Assembly (NCBI GenBank): GCA_038326325.1
Contig: JBBQJW010000017.1
Span: 2,009 to 66,008, forward strand
Reading direction: 5' to 3'
Origin: Chitinophagales bacterium
GTDB taxonomy: Bacteria; Bacteroidota; Bacteroidia; Chitinophagales; UBA10324
DNA length: 64,000 nt
The first letter of the stretch is position 1, and each line of letters opens with the position of its first letter. Positions 2,288 to 57,115 of this stretch are shown piece after piece. Position numbers and translations under genes: made by a program. The notes below the pieces were generated by a model. That model was given only the letters and a program-made list of their open reading frames with translations, searched no databases and was not told where the DNA came from.

Positions 2288-5200
2288 ATGAAAAAAATTT
2301 TATTTCTACTCCTCTCACTTTTCACTTTTCACCTTTTATCATTTACCTCCTTCGCACAGCAAACTTTTCCAGTAAACGGAACACACGATTTGCGTGAAGG
2401 AAATTTCGCGTTCACTCATGCGACTATCGCCGTTGATTACAAAACAATGTTGAGTGATGCTACTCTTTTAATTCGCGATGGAAAAATTGAAGCCGTTGGA
2501 AATAATGTTTCCATTCCAACAGGTGTAACAGCGATTGATTGCAAGGGGAAATTCATTTACCCTTCGTTCATAGATTTGTACAGCAACTACGGAGTTTCTT
2601 CAATAGAAAATAAAAGTGATGGCAACAGACGCGGTCCGCAATTTCTTTCAAATAAATCAGGGGCATACAACTGGAATCAGGCGGTGATGCCAGAAGTAAA
2701 TGCTGCGGATAATTTTTCGGTCGATGAAAAACAATCTGAAAGTTATCGCTCGCTTGGTTTCGGCGCGATGCTCGTTCAGCGTTTCGATGGAATCATGCGC
2801 GGCACTGGTGCAGTAGTGCTTGCAGGAAATGAAAGTGATAACGAAATGTTGCTGAACGAGAAAGCCGCCTCATGTTATTCATTTAGCAAGGGAACGAGTA
2901 CGCAGGATTATCCTTCGTCGCTCATGGGTTCCATCGCGTTACTGCGACAAACTTTTTACGATTCGCAGTGGTACAAAGCGGGTGGTGATAAGGAAGAAAA
3001 AAATATTTCGCTCGATGCATTGAACAATCAGTTATCTCTTCCACAAATTTTTCAGGTGGATAACGACCTCAGCATTTTGCGTGCAGATAAAATCGGTGAT
3101 GAGTTCGGAATAAAATTTATAGTCAAAGGTGCGGGCGATGAATACCAACGGCTGGATGAAATAAAATCTACGGGCGACGCACTCATTGTTCCAATCAATT
3201 TTCCGAAACCATATAATGTTACAGACCCTGATGATGCGGAAATAATTCCGCTATCAGCGCTCATGAATTGGGAACAGGCACCTGCTAATCTTTCACGAAT
3301 TGATAAAGCAGGAATCACTTTCTCAATTACAAAACAAGGATGCGGCGATGATGACTTCTGGAAAAATCTTCGCAAGGCCATTGAATACGGATTGAATAAA
3401 TCCGACGCGCTCAAGGCGCTCACTTACACTCCCGCTCAACTTTCAAATGAATGGAACGAATTGGGTTCGTTAGAAAAAGGAAAACTCGCCAACTTCATCA
3501 TTTGTTCAGATTCTATTTTCAATGAAGAAAATATTATTTATCAGAATTGGGTGAAAGGAAAAGCATACCAGGTGAATGACGAAAAAATTTCTTCCCTCAA
3601 GGGAGAATATTCTTTCACACTGAACAGAATGAGTGATGTAAAGCTCACGATTGAAAATCCTTCTTCGAATAACGGAGTGTTACAGTTTCATGATTCAACA
3701 AAATCAGATGTGAAGTTTTCGTTGAACGACAATTTGATTTCTCTTAACTTCTCCATGCCGAATGATTCCACCAAACAATTGTATCGGGTGAATGGATTTG
3801 TTGAAGGGGGAAATTTTTCAGGAAAAGGTTTAGACCCGAACGGAAAAGAAGTGGTTTGGACGGCAACCAGAAGCGGCGATGTCCAAGCGAAAAAAGATTC
3901 CTCAAAAAATAAAAATGAAAAACCAGTTTTCGGAAAAGTAGTTTATCCGTTTGATGGTTATGGTTGCGATACATTACCAAAACAGGAAACTGTTCTGTTC
4001 AAAAACGCGACGGTGTGGACGAATGAAACTGACAGCATCCTCCTCAACACTGATGTACTAATCTCCAATGGAAAAATTCAACAGATAGGCAAAAACATTT
4101 CCGCTCCCGCAGGTGCGCGCATCATTGACGCGACAAATAAATTTCTTACAAGCGGAATCATTGACGAGCATTCGCACATCGCGATTTCGCAGGGAGTGAA
4201 TGAAGGAACACAATCCGTTACAGCTGAAGTTCGCATCGGCGATGTGGTGAATTCTGAAGACATTGATATTTACCGCAACCTCGCGGGCGGAGTCGTTTGC
4301 TCGCATCTGTTACACGGCTCAGCGAATAATATCGGCGGACAAACGCAACTCATAAAACTTCGCTGGGGTTACGCTCCCGAGCAAATGAAATTCGCGGGAT
4401 GGACGGGCTTCATCAAGTTCGCGTTGGGAGAAAATGTGAAGCAAAGCAACTGGGGCGACTATAACACTTCGCGCTTTCCACAAACAAGAATGGGTGTCGA
4501 GCAGAATTTATTCGACGCGTTTATCCGCGCGAAGGATTATGAATTGAAATGGAATACTTATAACAATGCAAGTCATTCTTCAACGAAAAATAAAACTGTT
4601 ACAGCCGAAATCCTCCGCAGAGATTTGGAATTGGACGCGCTCGTTGAAATTCTGAATGGAAAAAGATTCATCACTTGTCATTCTTATGTCCAGAGCGAAA
4701 TCAATATGCTCATGCATGTGGCGGACAGCATGCATTTTCAGATGAACACCTTCACGCACATACTCGAAGGATATAAAGTCGCCGATAAAATGAAGGCGCA
4801 TGGAGTATACGCCTCTACTTTTTCCGACTGGTGGGCTTATAAGTATGAAGTGTATGACGCGATTCCTTACAACTCCGCCATACTCACGAAGGTAGGGGTG
4901 GTGACCGCTGTGAATTCTGACGACGCTGAAATGGCGCGCCGATTAAATCAGGAAGCTGCGAAGAGCATCAAGTACGGAGGACTAACAGAAATGCAGGCGT
5001 GGAAACTCTGCACTCTCAATCCGGCCAAGATGTTACATGTGGATGATAAAATAGGAAGTATAAAAGTTGGAAAAGACGCCGATGTTGTTTTGTGGAATGC
5101 GAACCCGCTGAGTGTTTACGCGAAACCCGAGTACACTTTTGTTGATGGCGTTTGTTTTTTTAGTCTGCAATCTGATTTACAAAAACGCGATTTCATTCGC

Positions 5201-5351: not shown

Positions 5352-6647
5352 ATGAAAAAAATATTCTCATTACTTCTCTCTCTTTTCGTTTTCAGTGTTA
5401 CATACGCGCAAACAATTCCTGTTGCACCGCCGCAGGATTCAATCATCATTCTGATGAATGGCATTGCCCATTTAGGAAATGGTGAAGTGATTGAAAATTC
5501 CATTATCGAAATTGTGAAAGGAAAAATTGCAATGATTGGTGATGCGCGAACAATCCGATTAGAAAAATCAAATGCAAAAATCATAAACATCTATGGCAAG
5601 CATGTGTATCCCGGATTGATTGCGTGTAACAGTAATTTAGGACTGAATGAAATTGAAGCGGCTCGCGCCACACGCGATGCGAACGAGGTTGGTGATTTCA
5701 ATCCGAACATCAGAAGCATCATCGCATACAACACAGATTCAAAAGTGATCGCGACTGTTCGCTCCAATGGAATTTTGTTGGCGCAGGTTGTTCCGCAGGG
5801 CGGAATTATTTCAGGTTCATCTTCTGTTATGCAACTCGACGCGTGGAATTGGGAGGACGCTGCTTACAAAACCGACGAAGGAATTCATCTCAACTGGCCC
5901 TCGTACTTCACCGCGCATTTTGACAATCCCGATGGCGGAACAGTTGGCTTGAATGAAAAATACGTGGAGCAGGTTCAGAACATTCGAAATTTTTTCGATG
6001 AAGCGAAAGCGTATTCACAAACTGTTACACACGAAAACACGAACCTGAAGTTCGAAGCGATGCGCGAATTGTTTTCCGGGAAGAAAATTTTTTTCATTCA
6101 CGCGGATGGCGTGAAAGAAATTACCGGGGCGGTGCTTTTCGCAAAATCTTATAACATGCGATGCGTGATAGTTGGTGGTAGCGACGCATGGAAATGCACT
6201 GATATTTTAGTCGCTAATCATGTGTCGGTGATACTCGGTAGAATTCAATCGCTGCCAGGTTCAACGGATGATGATTATGATTTGCCCTACAAAACTCCGG
6301 CGCTCTTGAAAAAAGCGGGAGTAGATTTTTGTTTGAGCATGGATGGTTTCTGGCAGCAGCGCAATCTTTCTTTTCTTGGCGGAGAAGCGATTGCTTACGG
6401 AGAAATAAGTAAGGAAGAAGCGCTGCGATACATCACTTCAAATGCTGCGCGCATTCTTGGAATTGATAGTGTAACAGGAACTCTAGAATCAGGGAAGGAC
6501 GCGAACATTATAGTGAGCGATGGAGATATTCTCGACATGAAAACCAACAATATCATTTACGCTTTCATACAAGGTCGGGAAATAAATCTCGACGACAAAC
6601 AAAAAGACTTGTATGAAGTTTATAAAGCGAAGTATGGAATAAAATAA
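5352..6647 (+). CDS. secreted amidohydrolase family protein
   Basis: Signal peptide MKKIFSLLLSLFVFSVTYAQ and a C-terminal GTLESGKDANIIV motif. The start is set at the ATG at 5352, because the track start at 5292 overlaps the upstream gene. Confidence 0.75.
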   Translation: MKKIFSLLLSLFVFSVTYAQTIPVAPPQDSIIILMNGIAHLGNGEVIENSIIEIVKGKIAMIGDARTIRLEKSNAKIINIYGKHVYPGLIACNSNLGLNEIEAARATRDANEVGDFNPNIRSIIAYNTDSKVIATVRSNGILLAQVVPQGGIISGSSSVMQLDAWNWEDAAYKTDEGIHLNWPSYFTAHFDNPDGGTVGLNEKYVEQVQNIRNFFDEAKAYSQTVTHENTNLKFEAMRELFSGKKIFFIHADGVKEITGAVLFAKSYNMRCVIVGGSDAWKCTDILVANHVSVILGRIQSLPGSTDDDYDLPYKTPALLKKAGVDFCLSMDGFWQQRNLSFLGGEAIAYGEISKEEALRYITSNAARILGIDSVTGTLESGKDANIIVSDGDILDMKTNNIIYAFIQGREINLDDKQKDLYEVYKAKYGIK

Positions 6648-26180: not shown

Positions 26181-26484
26181 GTATATCGTAGAAATTTTTC
26201 AGCCAGAAAAAGCTTTTAAATCCTTCTTCATAAAATCCCGCACTTCAATGATTGTAGAGTAGGTAATCACTCACCAGATTCCATTTCTTGCTCACGGGAT
26301 TTTTGTGAATGTAGTTAAGTTTCTGCAACATCATTTCCTTCCGTCCGCGCCGAGTCATTCGCTGTGCCTTGCGCTATGCCTGAGGACTCGGCGTTTATTC
26401 CTTCACCACCTTCCTGACTGTTACACTTAACCCGCCAATATCGCACCTCATTTCTTTCACAACATAAAAGTAATCAATCCTCCA

Positions 26485-26520
26485 AAACAAAAAACCCCGC
26501 AGAAGAAACTTCCCGGGGTC
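26485..26520 (-). terminator. rho-independent terminator after the 26559-27467 gene
   Basis: On the minus strand GACCCCGGGAAGTTTCTTCTGCGGGGT is followed by TTTTTTGTTTT. Confidence 0.6.
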
Positions 26521-26558
26521 TTAACAAAACCTTCTAAACTTTCATAACTTTAAAACTA

Positions 26559-27467
26559 TTAAACCTTCTCCATCACCACGCTAACCTCCACACTGCCGCC
26601 AAGTGGTATTTTTACATTAGGCACTTTAGCGGGTTTAAAATCAGGATGAGTAAATACAAACGAATAAACACCACCCTTAAATTTACTGATTTGATAAACA
26701 CCTGTTACATCTGTCGTGGTCTTCAAATCAGTATTTGTTCCAATCATTTCCACCTGCATTTTAAAGATGCCGTCTCCTGTAACACTATCCGTTGCTTTTC
26801 CTTTTACCGTGGTATGTGTTTGTCCTGAATCTATCACCTCCTTAGCTGCAAAATAAGTATCATAAAAAACAGGTTCACTGCTGAGCAGTGTTTCAATAAT
26901 AGGAGTCATTTCATTTTTTATTAAATCCATTCCTTGTTTATTCAGCACCGGAATAAGATTCGTTTGCGCCATCCGGTCAGCAACCGCCTCCCTCGGTTGA
27001 TCTACCGAACCTTTATAATTAGTTATCGCTGTTTGAAAAGTAGTAAGCACCGGAGCGGTTATTCCATAATCAGCAAGCAAAAGAATCAATCCGTTGGCGC
27101 GGTCGTGCATAAACTGGGCAGTCTGTGGCAGCAAACCATCATCTAATCTTTTCAACTTCGATTTAGCAATACTTACCTCGTCAAAAAGAACAGCATCACC
27201 AATCACATGAGCGTATGCTTTCATGGCCGATGCAACCGAAAAAGTTTGGTTCACCAATCCGTCATGCAATTGTTGTTTGTTAACCGTTACACCCTTTATG
27301 TTTTTTCGCTGCGCAAGGTCTGCACTTTCTATGGCGGCGACCACTGCGAGCAATGCTGTTTGCGCAACTCCGAGTGCAGGTCGCAGAGCTACGACAGCGG
27401 CGTTCGAAGCCAGAACTAAAAGTACTGTTCCGAACATGTTCAACCGGTTTTCAAAATACTGTTTCAT
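26559..27467 (-). CDS. hypothetical protein: helical N-terminal domain + C-terminal CarboxypepD_reg-like beta-sandwich (paralog of 55219-56166)
   Basis: The C-terminus is GKATDSVTGDGIFKMQVEMIG...TTDVTGVYQISKFKGGVYSFVFTHPDFKP. The start is set at MKQYFENR (27467). Confidence 0.6.
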   Translation of the reverse strand: MKQYFENRLNMFGTVLLVLASNAAVVALRPALGVAQTALLAVVAAIESADLAQRKNIKGVTVNKQQLHDGLVNQTFSVASAMKAYAHVIGDAVLFDEVSIAKSKLKRLDDGLLPQTAQFMHDRANGLILLLADYGITAPVLTTFQTAITNYKGSVDQPREAVADRMAQTNLIPVLNKQGMDLIKNEMTPIIETLLSSEPVFYDTYFAAKEVIDSGQTHTTVKGKATDSVTGDGIFKMQVEMIGTNTDLKTTTDVTGVYQISKFKGGVYSFVFTHPDFKPAKVPNVKIPLGGSVEVSVVMEKV

Positions 27468-27598
27468 GATTTTTGGTTTTTGTGATGAATGAGTTTTTAA
27501 TGTCAGACCAAAACTACATTCACCAAAACCCTTTGCTGGCTTCACTCGCACAGAATCGCATTAGATTGAATAGATACTCATTAGGGTGAATGGATTTT

Positions 27599-28081
27599 CT
27601 AATCTTCTTCTTTTTTTTCTGTTGATTTATGATTGTGATAGATGTGTAGATAAACTCTCACCACTTGCTCGTATGTTTCTGAAACAGGTAAATATTTTCT
27701 GTTTTCCAAATGAACTCCATCCGGTTCCATATCATACTGAATCATAAATTCCGGGTTGAACATAAACGAATTATGATTTCGTATTAATCCCATCTGTGTT
27801 AAATCATTTTCAAGTTCACCAATGGTTTCATTGCGGCGATACTTCACATTTTTATGAAGTGTTACAGCATAAATGTTTGTTCCGTGCCCCTCGCTTTCAG
27901 CATAAATAATATCTTTTCCCTTTATAAAAACATAACCGCCGTCCGGGTGAATCACTGAAAATTTTTGAAAGCTGTTCTGGTGAGATTGCTTTTCAAATTG
28001 TTGCCTCAATAAAAGAGTTGCCTTCATAACCGAAGCGCGTTTAATTTGCTTCACTAAAGCAGCCCAGAACGAAAGAGGCAT
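27599..28081 (-). CDS. stand-alone LytTR DNA-binding domain protein (no receiver domain)
   Basis: IIYAESEGHGTNIYAV...ETIGELENDL...LIRNHNSFMFNPEFMIQYD...LENRKYLPVSETY follows the LytTR pattern. An alternative start exists at 28027. Confidence 0.7.
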   Translation of the reverse strand: MPLSFWAALVKQIKRASVMKATLLLRQQFEKQSHQNSFQKFSVIHPDGGYVFIKGKDIIYAESEGHGTNIYAVTLHKNVKYRRNETIGELENDLTQMGLIRNHNSFMFNPEFMIQYDMEPDGVHLENRKYLPVSETYEQVVRVYLHIYHNHKSTEKKEED

Positions 28082-28225: not shown

Positions 28226-28560
28226 CAATAGCGACGGAAACCATCGCGAAAGCAAAGTAATCTGCCGAAACAACAAGGTAAGCGAAAACAATAGCTTCGG
28301 AAACAAAAGCAATGCTGTTGTCACTTGAAACAATGACGGGTAAGCGGAAGCAATAGCAGGTTAAACAAAAACAATAGCAAGGTAACTGACTGCAACAACG
28401 AGGTAAACAAAAACAATTGCATCGGAAACCATCTCGAAAGCAAAGTCAATCACAGAAACAGCGAGGTAAATAAAAACAATAGTGTCAGAAACAATCGCGA
28501 AGGCAATGTAAACTGGAGAAATGGAAGAGTAATTGAAATCAACAAAATAGGAATCACAAA
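28226..28560 (-). repeat. array of about 15 degenerate tandem repeats with ~21-bp period
   Basis: CAAT(A/G)GC anchors sit at 28289, 28310, 28331, 28351, 28372, 28393 and 28414. The minus-strand consensus is yTTTTGTTTACCtnGCTATTG. A higher-order duplication links 28235-28305 to 28423-28493. Confidence 0.8.
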
Positions 28561-28651
28561 TTCTATCGTGGTTTCTGCCCTCAAAAAAAATCATGAAACA
28601 ATATTTTCATTATCAATACTCCTTAATTACATTTGCGACGGATTAGTGATG

Positions 28652-53651: not shown

Positions 53652-54368
53652 ATGCAGGCGAAAACCGAAGGCATAGTTTTTCGAACAACTAAATATTCCG
53701 AGACGAGCGTGATCGCTTCGGTTTATACTGAACAATTCGGATTGCAGAGTTATATCATTAACGGAGTAAGGGGAAAAGCGAAATCGAATTCAAAATCTTC
53801 GTCGCTGCAATTGCTTTCCATTTTGAATATGGAGGTTTATAAAAAGGAAAATAAAAACCTGAACCGGATAAAAAGTTTTGAATCGGCGGTCGTGTTTAAG
53901 GAGATTCCGTTTGATGTGGTGAAAAGTTCACTCACTTTATTTATCGCGGAAGTTTTGAACCGAACCGTGGTGGAGGAAGAGTGTAACAGTCCGCTTTATC
54001 ATTTCGTGCGCAACTCGGTACTGGAATTGGACGGCGCGAAAAACGCTTCTGATTTTCATTTGCATTTTCTCGCCGCGTTAACTCAGCATCTTGGATTTTC
54101 TCCTCACGGAAAATATGCCGATGAAACGCCTGAGTTTAATTTGATGGATGGAAGTTTCGTGAATAATTCTTCCGTCTTTAATCCGCATTATTTATCAGGA
54201 GAAAACGCCCAACGATTTTCTGAATTATTTTTTAATCCCACTTCATTAAACCTGAATAAAAAAAACAGAAAAGAATTACTGCTGTCGTTGCTTGAATATT
54301 ACCGGCTGCATGTTTCCAATTTCAATATCATGAAATCACTTGAGGTGATTGAACAGGTGTTTGCGTGA
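53652..54368 (+). CDS. recO: DNA repair protein RecO
   Basis: Typical RecO N-terminal OB region, GIVFRTTKYSETSVIASVYTEQFGLQSY. The start is moved to 53652. Confidence 0.8.
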   Translation: MQAKTEGIVFRTTKYSETSVIASVYTEQFGLQSYIINGVRGKAKSNSKSSSLQLLSILNMEVYKKENKNLNRIKSFESAVVFKEIPFDVVKSSLTLFIAEVLNRTVVEEECNSPLYHFVRNSVLELDGAKNASDFHLHFLAALTQHLGFSPHGKYADETPEFNLMDGSFVNNSSVFNPHYLSGENAQRFSELFFNPTSLNLNKKNRKELLLSLLEYYRLHVSNFNIMKSLEVIEQVFA

Positions 54369-54380
54369 GCGGATGCTTGT

Positions 54381-54752
54381 GCGCATGGTTTTGAGGGGGA
54401 CTGCGTATATCAATTTACTACACTGCGTATGTGAATTTACTGCGTTGCGTATTTTGATTTACGGCACTGCGTATTTGTATTTACTTCGGTGTGTATGCTC
54501 ATTAACCCCATTGCGTATATCTATTAACGCTATTGTGTAAAGCTCTTACTGTAACAGCGTATTATCATTTACTGCATGGCGTATTGTCGTTAATTGCATG
54601 GCGTATTGTTATTTACTATTGTGCGTATGATTCTTGACCGTATTGCGCATGTGATTGAGTGATTGTTTCTATTCAAATTAGTGCATAAGGTGTATACTAA
54701 TGTTTTCAGGGGCATATTTTCCTGACTGAATGTGTATTGTACGAATTCGTAC
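54381..54752 (+). repeat. array of about 16 degenerate tandem repeats with a strict 22-bp period
   Basis: G(C/T)G(T/C)AT anchors fall every 22 bp from 54381 to 54645 (54381, 54403, 54425, and so on). They continue roughly in phase at 54690, 54712 and 54732. The consensus is GCGTATnnnnATTTACTnnnnT. Confidence 0.85.
54739..54752. promoter_or_regulatory. perfect 14-bp palindrome GTACGAATTCGTAC, candidate operator
   Basis: It lies between the end of the repeat array and the start of the HTH gene. Confidence 0.35.
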
Positions 54753-54798
54753 AAACTGCATTTTTTATCCCGACATTTTTGTTTTTCGAAATTCAGAA

Positions 54799-55080
54799 AT
54801 GAGCGCTGACCACAACTTCTTAGTATCAATGCAAAAGCGGCTGATTTTCCTTCGTGAAAAAAAATTTATAACCCCAAGTGAATTTGGAAATGTGGCGAAT
54901 GTGAATGAGAGAAGAAATGAAATATATGCGCAAGACCTTAGGGCAACTTCTATCGGAAGAATTGTGATCTCACTTCAAATTGATTTTAATGTTAGTGAAT
55001 TAATAACTAAGGAAATGCTGATGAAATATGCCGATGAACTTGATAAGGAAGAACACGAAAGAGAGAGTAGAGGGGAATAA
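54799..55080 (+). CDS. small XRE-like helix-turn-helix protein
   Basis: KRLIFLREKKFITPSEFGNVANVNERRNEIYAQDLRATSIGRIVISLQIDFNVSELI follows XRE HTH spacing. The start is set at 54799 because the 54730 ATG lies inside the repeat array. Confidence 0.5.
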   Translation: MSADHNFLVSMQKRLIFLREKKFITPSEFGNVANVNERRNEIYAQDLRATSIGRIVISLQIDFNVSELITKEMLMKYADELDKEEHERESRGE

Positions 55081-55218: not shown

Positions 55219-56166
55219 ATGGCACTTTTAATCAGACCTGTTTACCGATGCACTCAACTTGAGCTGTATTCGACATTGAAAACCATTTGGGACAATTATG
55301 ATGACCATCAGGCGCAACTTGTTACTTACAAGAGTAAGTATGATGCTCCGCTGAGTGTTACACACAAGGGTGAAATTGCCGCTGCGAAAGCTTTGCCTGA
55401 CGAAGAAGCGCGAAATGCTGAATCGCAGAATCTTCGGATTGATGTAACAGCGCTTGGTCAAAAATGCACCCGCAACTGGCAACTATTGAAGGGATATATT
55501 GTGGAAGCTTATCCAGGGGCTAATCAGAAAGTACAGTTGGATGCAGCGGGGGCGGTTTACTATGTACCGGCATCGCACAGCAACTGGGAGTTTGTGGCGG
55601 GCATGAATTCTTCTGCAAACAATTTTATCGTTGCAAACGGTGCAGCATTATTAGCGGATGGTTTTATGCCCGCAGGATTTAAACTTCAATACAAAACTGA
55701 CAGCGATGCTTTTGATGTTAAGTATGATGAGTTTAAACATGCGCAACAATCGAGTGAGGGAACTGACGAGAAAATAAAAGCGAACAATAAAATTTATGAG
55801 GACAGCATGAAGATGTGCGCTGATGCAACAATGTTTTTTGTAACGGATGATTCGATAGTGAAGAAGTTTACTTTCACTACAGTGTTACAGATTGTTAGCC
55901 CGCCGGGGAGTGCAAGTTTGAAAATACAAGCCATTAACTTAGGCACTAATGAAATTATTGTTGGAGCGAAGGTGGTGATTCAGAAGGAAGGCAATGCTGC
56001 ATTGAACGGAATTACTGATGACAGTGGTGAAGTTGTTTTTCCGGGGATTGACCCGGGTGCTTATGATGTGACTATTGCCGCCGTTGGATATACTGCGATG
56101 AATTTCAGTAAGGATGTGAATACAGGTGTGAGTGCGCGAAAGGATGTGTTTATGACGGCGGTTTAG
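55219..56166 (+). CDS. hypothetical protein: helical N-terminal domain + C-terminal CarboxypepD_reg-like beta-sandwich (paralog of 26559-27467)
   Basis: The C-terminus is GAKVVIQKEGNAALNGITDDSGEVVFPGIDPGAYDVTIAAVGYTAMNF. It shares an LLAD.G...A....F.T segment with the other copy. Confidence 0.6.
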   Translation: MALLIRPVYRCTQLELYSTLKTIWDNYDDHQAQLVTYKSKYDAPLSVTHKGEIAAAKALPDEEARNAESQNLRIDVTALGQKCTRNWQLLKGYIVEAYPGANQKVQLDAAGAVYYVPASHSNWEFVAGMNSSANNFIVANGAALLADGFMPAGFKLQYKTDSDAFDVKYDEFKHAQQSSEGTDEKIKANNKIYEDSMKMCADATMFFVTDDSIVKKFTFTTVLQIVSPPGSASLKIQAINLGTNEIIVGAKVVIQKEGNAALNGITDDSGEVVFPGIDPGAYDVTIAAVGYTAMNFSKDVNTGVSARKDVFMTAV

Positions 56167-56204
56167 AAGAGTATCAAGTAGCAAGACGCAAGTATCAAGA
56201 TTTT

Positions 56205-56238
56205 AAAACCCCGAAGATTTTTTCTTCGGGGTTTTTTG
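56205..56238 (+). terminator. rho-independent terminator
   Basis: AAAACCCCGAAG-attttttt-CTTCGGGGTTTT followed by TTG. Confidence 0.8.
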
Positions 56239-56314
56239 TTTTATTAACTGTTACAGTTCGGTTTTAAACCAGAATTTTTAATTGCACTCGAGGCGACAGG
56301 CCGGACAGAGCTGA

Positions 56315-56963: not shown

Positions 56964-57115
56964 CAGCTAACATGAAGATAAATGCAAATTTTTAAAAGAA
57001 GGGCTTTGTACGGTAATCAAACAGTTGTGCATCTAACAAACATTGTAGGTTATCGAACAGTTGTGCTTCTAAACCCTTCTTTTAAAAACTTCATTTATCC
57101 CTTATGCGTTAGCTG
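56964..57115 (+). repeat. complete 152-bp imperfect palindrome with attC-like box layout
   Basis: The paired elements are CAGCTAAC / GTTAGCTG (8 bp), ATAAATG / CATTTAT (7 bp) and TTTTTAAAAGAAGGG / CCCTTCTTTTAAAAA (15 bp). The 70-nt centre carries the 17-nt direct repeat AACAGTTGTGCWTCTAA twice. Confidence 0.8.

Follow-up and report, generated by a model that had tools for sequence, protein, structure and literature searches.

Phased 21/22-bp repeat arrays adjoin genes for helical proteins at two loci of a Chitinophagales bacterium and at related loci

The 64-kb window analysed here, a stretch of the genome of a Chitinophagales bacterium (GenBank assembly GCA_038326325.1, contig JBBQJW010000017.1), contains two loci, termed A and B, at which an array of short direct repeats precedes a small gene for a putative DNA-binding protein and a larger gene for a protein with a helical N-terminal domain (N-domain) and a C-terminal beta-sandwich. 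From the sequence alone, an initial annotation had described these loci as paralogous three-part cassettes with an unchanged array motif and effector architecture but an exchanged DNA-binding partner. For the present analysis, arrays were detected with Tandem Repeats Finder (TRF), domains were assigned by Pfam, and 19 loci of the family of large protein B and 27 loci of the family of large protein A were collected. The initial observation proved largely right, but its interpretation changes: the conserved unit is the array together with the gene for the helical protein, and the small DNA-binding genes are optional, lineage-specific additions that do not belong to its core.

Genes and repeats at the two loci

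Locus A lies on the minus strand and begins with array A (28226..28537), a non-coding series of about 15 degenerate direct repeats with a period of 21 bp, a 63-bp super-unit and one 1-bp phase slip, which was reported by TRF as 4.6 copies of a 63-bp period at positions 28226-28515. Stacking of the array gives units such as TTTGTTTACCTCGTTGTTGCA. The tetranucleotide TTAC is found eight times in the array, always on the gene-sense strand and at spacings that are multiples of 21. The array is followed by the gene for a stand-alone LytTR protein of 160 aa without a receiver domain (27599..28081, Pfam PF04397) and by the gene for large protein A (26559..27467; 302 aa), which consists of an all-helical N-domain (residues 1-212) and a CarboxypepD_reg beta-sandwich (residues 220-300). 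A terminator-like hairpin with a U-run is located 3′ of the latter gene at about 26480..26522 (folding energy -17.5 kcal/mol, z -1.6).

Locus B lies on the plus strand, where array B (54382..54667) begins 13 bp past the recO stop codon and comprises about 13 direct repeats with a strict 22-bp period (TRF period 22/44). The blocks TGCGTAT and ATTTAC are conserved in its units while the spacers vary, and GCGTAT recurs at multiples of 22. Between the array and the small gene lies a perfect 18-bp palindrome, TTGTACGAATTCGTACAA (54737..54754, without strand assignment), a candidate operator of a helix-turn-helix (HTH) protein. It is followed by the gene for small protein B (54799..55080; 93 aa), a probable but unproven XRE-type HTH protein, by the gene for large protein B (55219..56166; 315 aa), in which an all-helical N-domain (about residues 1-226) is joined by the conserved linker VSPPGSASLK to a CarboxypepD_reg beta-sandwich, and by a strong intrinsic terminator with a 13-bp stem and a T-run (56205..56235; folding energy -21.6 kcal/mol, z -5.4).

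The open reading frames (ORFs) and the gene order of both loci were thus found as initially annotated. Both arrays are likewise present, but the end of array B had been set at 54752, which takes in a non-repeat tract with the 18-bp palindrome. A strong terminator had been assigned to each locus; a hairpin with a T-run is found at both, the one at locus A being the weaker. These terminators (26484-26524 and 56203-56242) are 85.7% identical over 42 bp, unlike the large genes A and B themselves, which have no DNA similarity. The contexts of the loci are chromosomal, with recO and rimP-nusA-infB among the neighbours, and the window sequence was found in one DNA metagenome sample only (three runs listed).

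No further array of this kind was detected by TRF over the window. A motif common to arrays A and B was considered and rejected, the phased TTAC being the only shared element and too short for significance; the claim that the array motif is kept is therefore not borne out, and among relatives the unit sequences differ completely between lineages. The arrays are not CRISPR arrays either, since their units stand head-to-tail without spacers. Spurious ORFs of 60-100 codons traverse the arrays in the window (28361-28594 on the minus strand and 54349-54540 on the plus strand) and at two further loci, L054 (1350-1601) and L020 (2931-3250), and the one in L054 had been annotated as a gene. For annotation this means that ORFs called within such arrays are repeat artefacts, and that adjacent LytTR or HTH genes are accessories.

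The large proteins and their repeat arrays

The CarboxypepD_reg domain (PF13620) is recognised in large protein A with 42 bits and in large protein B with 36.2 bits (Pfam gathering cut-off 32.3), and the predicted fold agrees, which upholds the initial assignment of a C-terminal CarboxypepD_reg/transthyretin-like domain to both proteins. AlphaFold2 (AF2) models (mean predicted local distance difference test score 91 for large protein B and 79 for large protein A) both contain about ten helices in similar order, followed by the sandwich; the best Foldseek matches were the transthyretin-like domains of carboxypeptidases D and N and CnaB. As initially noted, neither protein has an obvious signal peptide, the N-terminus of large protein A being borderline hydrophobic (Kyte-Doolittle value 1.84). 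This hydrophobic N-terminal stretch (residues 9-35, window positions 27439-27361; Kyte-Doolittle values 1.84-2.17) is shared with the two closest relatives of large protein A and is missing in more distant ones; it could be a subclade-specific membrane anchor or simply buried helices.

For large protein B, 66 homologues were found, all from Bacteroidota-type sources and annotated as hypothetical or "carboxypeptidase regulatory-like domain" proteins; several genomes contain two or three copies. Full-length large protein A has few close relatives, but a profile of its helical domain matched 6024 cluster representatives (clusters at 50% identity) at E <= 1e-3, a number that drops to 4168 at E <= 1e-10. 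Among the best 150 matches, 61 have lengths of 201-260 aa (helical domain alone), 76 have lengths of 261-340 aa (one sandwich added) and 11 are longer. Across the gene-plus-array units, the large protein is soluble and its all-helical domain measures about 215 aa, to which about half of the members add one C-terminal sandwich. Named members are hypothetical proteins from Verrucomicrobiota metagenome-assembled genomes. The helical domain of large protein A has no Pfam model and yielded no sequence relative in a profile search of the PDB; with regard to the N-domains, Foldseek searches of the PDB and BFVD matched the beta-sandwich only, and searches of PHROGs, NCBIfam and PADLOC gave nothing meaningful, including no meaningful defence-system match. 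On these profile matches, the helical domain of large protein A represents a large family of at least 6000 sequence clusters that has neither a name, nor a Pfam model, nor a structural relative. Relatives of the large proteins were absent from the viral contigs searched, and a phage origin of the units was rejected on this ground.

The two large proteins had been called paralogous, with weak similarity between their N-terminal regions. BLASTP gave no match between them, and hhalign aligned them with a probability of 96-98% that was restricted to residues 157-302 of A and 179-316 of B, which is essentially the common beta-sandwich, a very common domain. The N-domains were compared in several variants (full-length proteins, N-domains only and half-domains; in further runs, secondary structure from the AF2 models was added or the most distant B subgroup was used). 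Alignments of the N-domains alone reached E values of 0.3, 0.055, 0.034 and 0.19, none of which is significant, and the best local alignments were inconsistent, some placing the second half of A against the first half of B and one placing N-terminus against N-terminus. The weak N-terminal similarity is thus undetectable by BLASTP or profile comparison, and of the profile comparisons, a kind of check that had been proposed, those of the sandwich support kinship and those of the N-domains give no significant result. Both models do show the helical-plus-sandwich architecture that had been described as kept, but by sequence the helical domains fall into two separate families. A helix-order shuffle test of the two models gave 11/300, and the similar helix order is a hint, only a suggestive one, at remote kinship. 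By these comparisons, demonstrable kinship of large proteins A and B is limited to their C-terminal domains, and the proteins are otherwise at best remote homologues. The chance of remote homology is rated as roughly even, chiefly on account of the unusual genomic companion that the two families have in common.

This companion is the repeat array. The collected loci were divided into near zones, extending from the family gene by 1 kb on its upstream side and by 0.7 kb on its downstream side (64 kb in total), and the remaining flanks (139 kb). With a strict self-match criterion for periods of 21/22, 23 arrays were found in the near zones and 0 in the flanks (binomial 2.8e-12, under the assumption of uniform array placement). 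A looser contrast criterion gave 31 arrays near the gene and one far from it, covering 17 of the 19 B-family loci and 14 of the 27 A-family loci; for six array-negative loci of the A family, the upstream sequence is shorter than 350 bp. Arrays of about 8-16 direct repeats therefore neighbour the genes of both families far above chance, and in this sense loci A and B are indeed instances of a single recurring type of unit. In this neighbourhood census of the collected loci, a check of the kind suggested initially, the array does co-occur with the large gene, while the small regulator is mostly absent.

The period is always 21/22, often in the form of 42/44/63/66-bp super-units, and the unit sequence is lineage-specific. 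Only among close relatives are the units recognisably similar, and the orientation to the gene is then identical. Fixed blocks with variable spacers were found in the units of 7 of 11 arrays, a pattern of the kind expected for binding sites. Paralogues from the same genome (L013, L016 and L021) have differing unit sequences, and near-identical repeat copies occur at L020 (98%) and L014 (100%). The initially described order of array and then gene does not hold throughout: in one B subclade (L008, L009, L011, L012 and L014) the array is situated 85-217 bp downstream of the stop codon.

Other sequence elements were observed next to some of these units. In L008 and L009, a 165-bp long-hairpin element (about -42 kcal/mol) follows immediately on the gene-plus-array module in two copies, which are separated by about 970 bp and enclose a small ORF (L008 3777-3941 and 4745-4908; L009 5423-5585 and 6133-6297), and a long hairpin with 30-bp arms of 90% complementarity is found in the window downstream of locus B (56977-57099). 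The hairpin elements look like bounds of gene cassettes. An integron-like cassette was rejected as a general explanation, since modules with flanking long hairpins are confined to L008/L009 and the window. In L001, the final 56 bp of the large gene are found again (5655-5710) about 770 bp past the intact gene; this extra 3′ end is 80% identical to the corresponding 3′ end in the window and appears to be what is left of a decayed tandem paralogue.

Small DNA-binding genes and transcripts

The identification of the 160-aa protein as a LytTR protein passes the Pfam threshold (PF04397; E 7.7e-9; score 36.1 bits, cut-off 22.6; residues 50-142) and is accompanied by a match to phrog_8810 (E 3e-11). 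No other significant domain was detected in it, the remaining Pfam matches lying below their cut-offs at E 0.025 or weaker. The 93-aa small protein B had no Pfam, NCBIfam or PHROG match at E <= 1. Homologues with 41% identity are encoded at the same position in L005 and L006, and a three-sequence profile of small protein B and two positional equivalents, searched against the PDB, matched almost only XRE-type proteins (HipB, C-proteins and PezA; E 0.1-1), with the XRE-type matches in register. The label "XRE-like HTH" is thus backed by the kind of structure matched, but all matches are at E of about 0.1 or weaker and no family match was obtained; from the sequence, assignment of small protein B to the XRE-type HTH proteins is plausible but unproven.

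Among the B-family loci, an HTH-like gene between the array and the large gene is restricted to the window and the loci most closely related to it (L001/L007, L005 and L006; identity to the window 78% for L005/L006 and 54% for L001). In L006, the perfect 18-bp palindrome TTATACCGTACGGTATAA (about 766-783) occupies a position equivalent to that of the window's palindrome, and in L001 the palindrome AACTACA-N4-TGTAGTT with 7-bp arms (about 3641-3658) is located in the equivalent position before the small gene. The palindrome sequences thus differ between the three lineages while the position is kept, and the palindrome is likely the operator of the small HTH-like protein. Since a palindrome is the expected operator of a dimeric HTH protein, the protein probably does not read the direct-repeat array; most likely it would bind its own 18-bp palindrome instead.

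In L008, a complete LytTR domain (Pfam E 5e-6) is encoded directly upstream of the B-family gene, whereas the near-identical L009 has no LytTR gene. Starting 11 bp before the ATG and continuing across the gene and the downstream array, L008 and L009 share 94% identity; their upstream flanks are unrelated. The presence of LytTR in the window and in L008 but not in L009 indicates that it joined these units at least twice, which by sequence comparison amounts to two independent recruitments; the remaining loci have no LytTR gene. Taken together, a small regulator adjoins 4 of 18 distinct B-family loci (HTH in L001/L007, L005 and L006; LytTR in L008), and no small regulator was seen at the 10 array-bearing A-family metagenome loci for which ORFs were listed. 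The proposed three-part cassette of array, regulator and effector is not sustained by these counts, as the small DNA-binding gene is missing at most loci; nor do they favour a swap of partners, the regulators being rare local inserts with LytTR acquired twice and HTH confined to one subclade. Another small regulator was observed near a family locus in a different arrangement: in L054, which has an A-family gene with a GC-rich 21-bp array, a clear HTH_3/HTH_19 gene (746-976 on the minus strand; 76 aa) is oriented divergently about 370 bp upstream of the array.

Evidence on transcription was obtained for the A family. For locus L043, no RNA run was found. A contig of a relative that is 92-94% identical to the A-family loci L049 and L050 (genes at 813-1508 and 1313-2011, respectively) is present in five peat metatranscriptomes at depths of 83-133. 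This depth exceeds the summed depth over the neighbouring ribosomal protein L5-like gene (40.8-59.2) in three of the four runs compared. The contigs are good evidence that the A family is well expressed in nature. In two of them (X7 and X8), the sequence begins right next to the sequencing adapter, 14 nt within the annotated ORF and just before a conserved second Met; two others (X10 and X11) stop close to this point but have no adapter, and the longest one (X9) reaches only 62 nt further upstream. This suggests that the true start codon of the L049/L050-type gene is the conserved second Met. None of the five contigs extends to the distance at which arrays lie, which is modest evidence that arrays are outside the abundant mRNA; the contigs come from a relative whose upstream sequence was not seen and show presence, not absence.

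Interpretation of the arrays and comparison with known systems

Both loci may be understood as part of a widespread class of gene-plus-array units in which the arrays are DNA-level docking platforms controlling a highly expressed protein, a reading that we prefer tentatively and with a confidence slightly short of even. It is suggested by the period of two helical turns, the lineage-specific units with conserved blocks, the kept orientation and the recruitment of LytTR, features that in combination speak for a lattice of docking sites along a single face of the DNA helix. In such a mechanism, which as a whole we infer, the array would act as DNA and not as RNA and would offer many equally phased sites to a factor that binds as one monomer per repeat. 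At locus A this factor could plausibly be the adjacent LytTR protein: known LytTR operators consist of 9-bp repeats with 12-bp spacers (PMC6193735; PMC4227749), which gives a period of 21 bp and fits array A. The direct repeats of LytTR operators are mostly 12 bp apart and located just upstream of promoters (PMC6193735), and AgrA binds pairs of direct repeats (PMC4227749). The bound lattice would then set the transcription of the adjacent gene or genes, and the large protein would be an abundant cytoplasmic structural or binding protein.

A number of observations weigh against docking platforms. Array A contains 0 matches to the published LytTR consensus WMMGTTNRK. The unit columns of array B are unevenly conserved (p 0.009), but those of array A are not (p 0.6-0.9), and uneven column conservation can also stem from the amplification of 42-66-bp super-units. 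Most loci encode no DNA-binding protein, and the downstream array of one B subclade is not predicted by a simple upstream-activator model. Due to the differing units of same-genome paralogues, many separate trans factors would be needed. Finally, the RNA evidence consists of assembled contigs of a relative, in which missing coverage carries little weight.

Several other explanations were weighed. That the loci are self-contained three-part cassettes with paralogous effectors and a swapped DNA-binding partner would account for the same order occurring twice in the window, for the helical-plus-sandwich models with similar helix order (11/300 in the shuffle test), for the HTH and large-gene pair kept in L001, L005 and L006 and for the recurrence of the LytTR and large-gene pair in L008; we nevertheless consider it improbable in view of the regulator counts given above, the non-significant N-domain similarity and the palindrome that the HTH has of its own apart from the array. 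Alternatively, the helical protein itself might read the array, each paralogue binding the lattice beside its own gene for self-regulation in cis or for loading onto DNA. This would explain the locus-specific units and the indifference to upstream or downstream position, and the large gene is the sole gene that is always beside the array. Arrays diverge together with the genes in fixed orientation, and it is in particular the downstream arrays and the differing units of same-genome paralogues that keep the idea alive. Binding of DNA by the helical protein is, however, unlikely: the helical domains are acidic to neutral (median isoelectric point 5.1-6.3), and neither Pfam nor PDB profile searches nor Foldseek turned up any fold or family that binds nucleic acids. 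A wider form of the same idea, a new class of cis-coupled gene-repeat modules across Bacteroidota, Verrucomicrobiota and other phyla, in which each abundant helical protein has its own 21/22-bp "address" and assembles, itself or as part of a complex, on the lattice, is rated as quite unlikely. If true, it would constitute a self-specifying protein-DNA pair unlike known operator, iteron and centromere systems, with LytTR and HTH proteins as optional gatekeepers.

Two further explanations dispense with a protein-binding lattice. The array could be transcribed and work as RNA, be it in a repeat-containing leader, in a 3′ tail or as a sponge for protein or other RNAs, for which the kept orientation to the gene among relatives and the possibility of read-through from recO speak, with only a weak terminator-like site (54362-54383; 9 pairs, 4 of them G-C) located before array B; small-RNA roles are moreover raised for such repeats by Subirana and Messeguer (PMC8161180). 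Yet the contigs of the well-expressed relative begin near the start codon without an array-length leader, and a period of two DNA turns has no obvious meaning for RNA, so that we regard this explanation as very improbable. The arrays could also be without a regulatory role, either as satellite-like sequences or as hitch-hiking by-products or substrates of gene movement and duplication by cassette recombination or unequal crossing-over. The 42-66-bp super-units and the near-identical copies in L020 and L014 do indicate recent amplification, the family is multi-copy in genomes with orthologues in differing contexts, the module adjoins hairpin-bounded cassettes in L008/L009 and the window, and L001 carries a decayed second 3′ end. 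Neutral satellites, however, would not be expected to hold a 21/22 period across phyla and through full sequence turnover as these arrays do, fixed blocks are kept in degenerate arrays, and 27 of the 30 loci scanned have no long hairpin element; a lack of regulatory function is accordingly held to be improbable.

The docking-platform reading can be set against several described systems, none of which the module matches, as had been noted initially. Beyond that first description, the analysis adds that the two loci of the window belong to two branches distinct in sequence, that the HTH protein appears to have its own conserved palindrome, that LytTR was by comparison of flanks recruited twice, that one subclade has a downstream array and that transcripts, judged from the relative's contigs, start close to the gene. 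With LytTR systems (AgrA, ComE, PlnC and BtsR, as well as the HdrRM/BrsRM type; PMC6193735), locus A shares a stand-alone LytTR gene placed first in a small operon and upstream direct repeats with 21 bp from centre to centre, a spacing that fits a separation of 11-13 bp, and autoregulation is plausible. It differs in having about 15 repeats and not a pair, in the absence of the consensus, in an array that ends about 145 bp before the start codon as compared with about 10 bp before the -35 box, and in a helical/beta-sandwich partner in place of a DUF3021/DUF2154 membrane inhibitor, no such Pfam domain having been found; in addition, most related arrays have no LytTR gene nearby. Controller (C) proteins and small XRE autoregulators resemble locus B in that a small HTH-like gene stands just upstream of a gene that is possibly gated by it and is preceded by a perfect palindrome, here kept in three lineages. 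At locus B, by contrast, the HTH match is below threshold (E about 0.1), there is no restriction enzyme or toxin target, and a phased array is present upstream in addition.

Tandem repeats at intervals of two helical turns beside a protein gene are also known from iteron-Rep systems (the 22-bp iterons of R6K and pPS10) and from partition centromeres (parC-ParR, sopC-SopB and tubC-TubR). Such repeats are element-specific, and partition systems comprise a small DNA binder and a larger partner. Here, by contrast, neither a Rep_3/winged-helix fold nor an NTPase was detected, the neighbouring genes are chromosomal, the family is multi-copy per genome and no relatives turned up in viral contigs. An iteron-Rep replicon was accordingly rejected, with no Rep family match, an N-domain that is all-helical in the AF2 model and chromosomal neighbours.

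The closest resemblance in the repeats themselves is to the constant-size, variable-sequence tandem repeats of 20-23 nt that, according to Subirana and Messeguer, are enigmatic in many bacteria (PMC8161180) and for which the proposals involve a small RNA or a protein that polymerises on DNA (PMC8161180; PMC6749651). Like these, the arrays described here are non-coding and have a fixed period in the 20-23 range with a sequence that varies between families and species, and the 31 loci with 21/22 arrays and unrelated units fit the constant-size definition (PMC8161180). The accessible portions of these papers draw no link to a particular neighbouring protein family, and a literature search found no paper linking 20-23 nt repeats to the large-protein family, whereas the present arrays are tied to one gene class. 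This partnership of array and gene gives the unexplained 20-23 nt tandem repeats of bacteria a concrete genetic partner.

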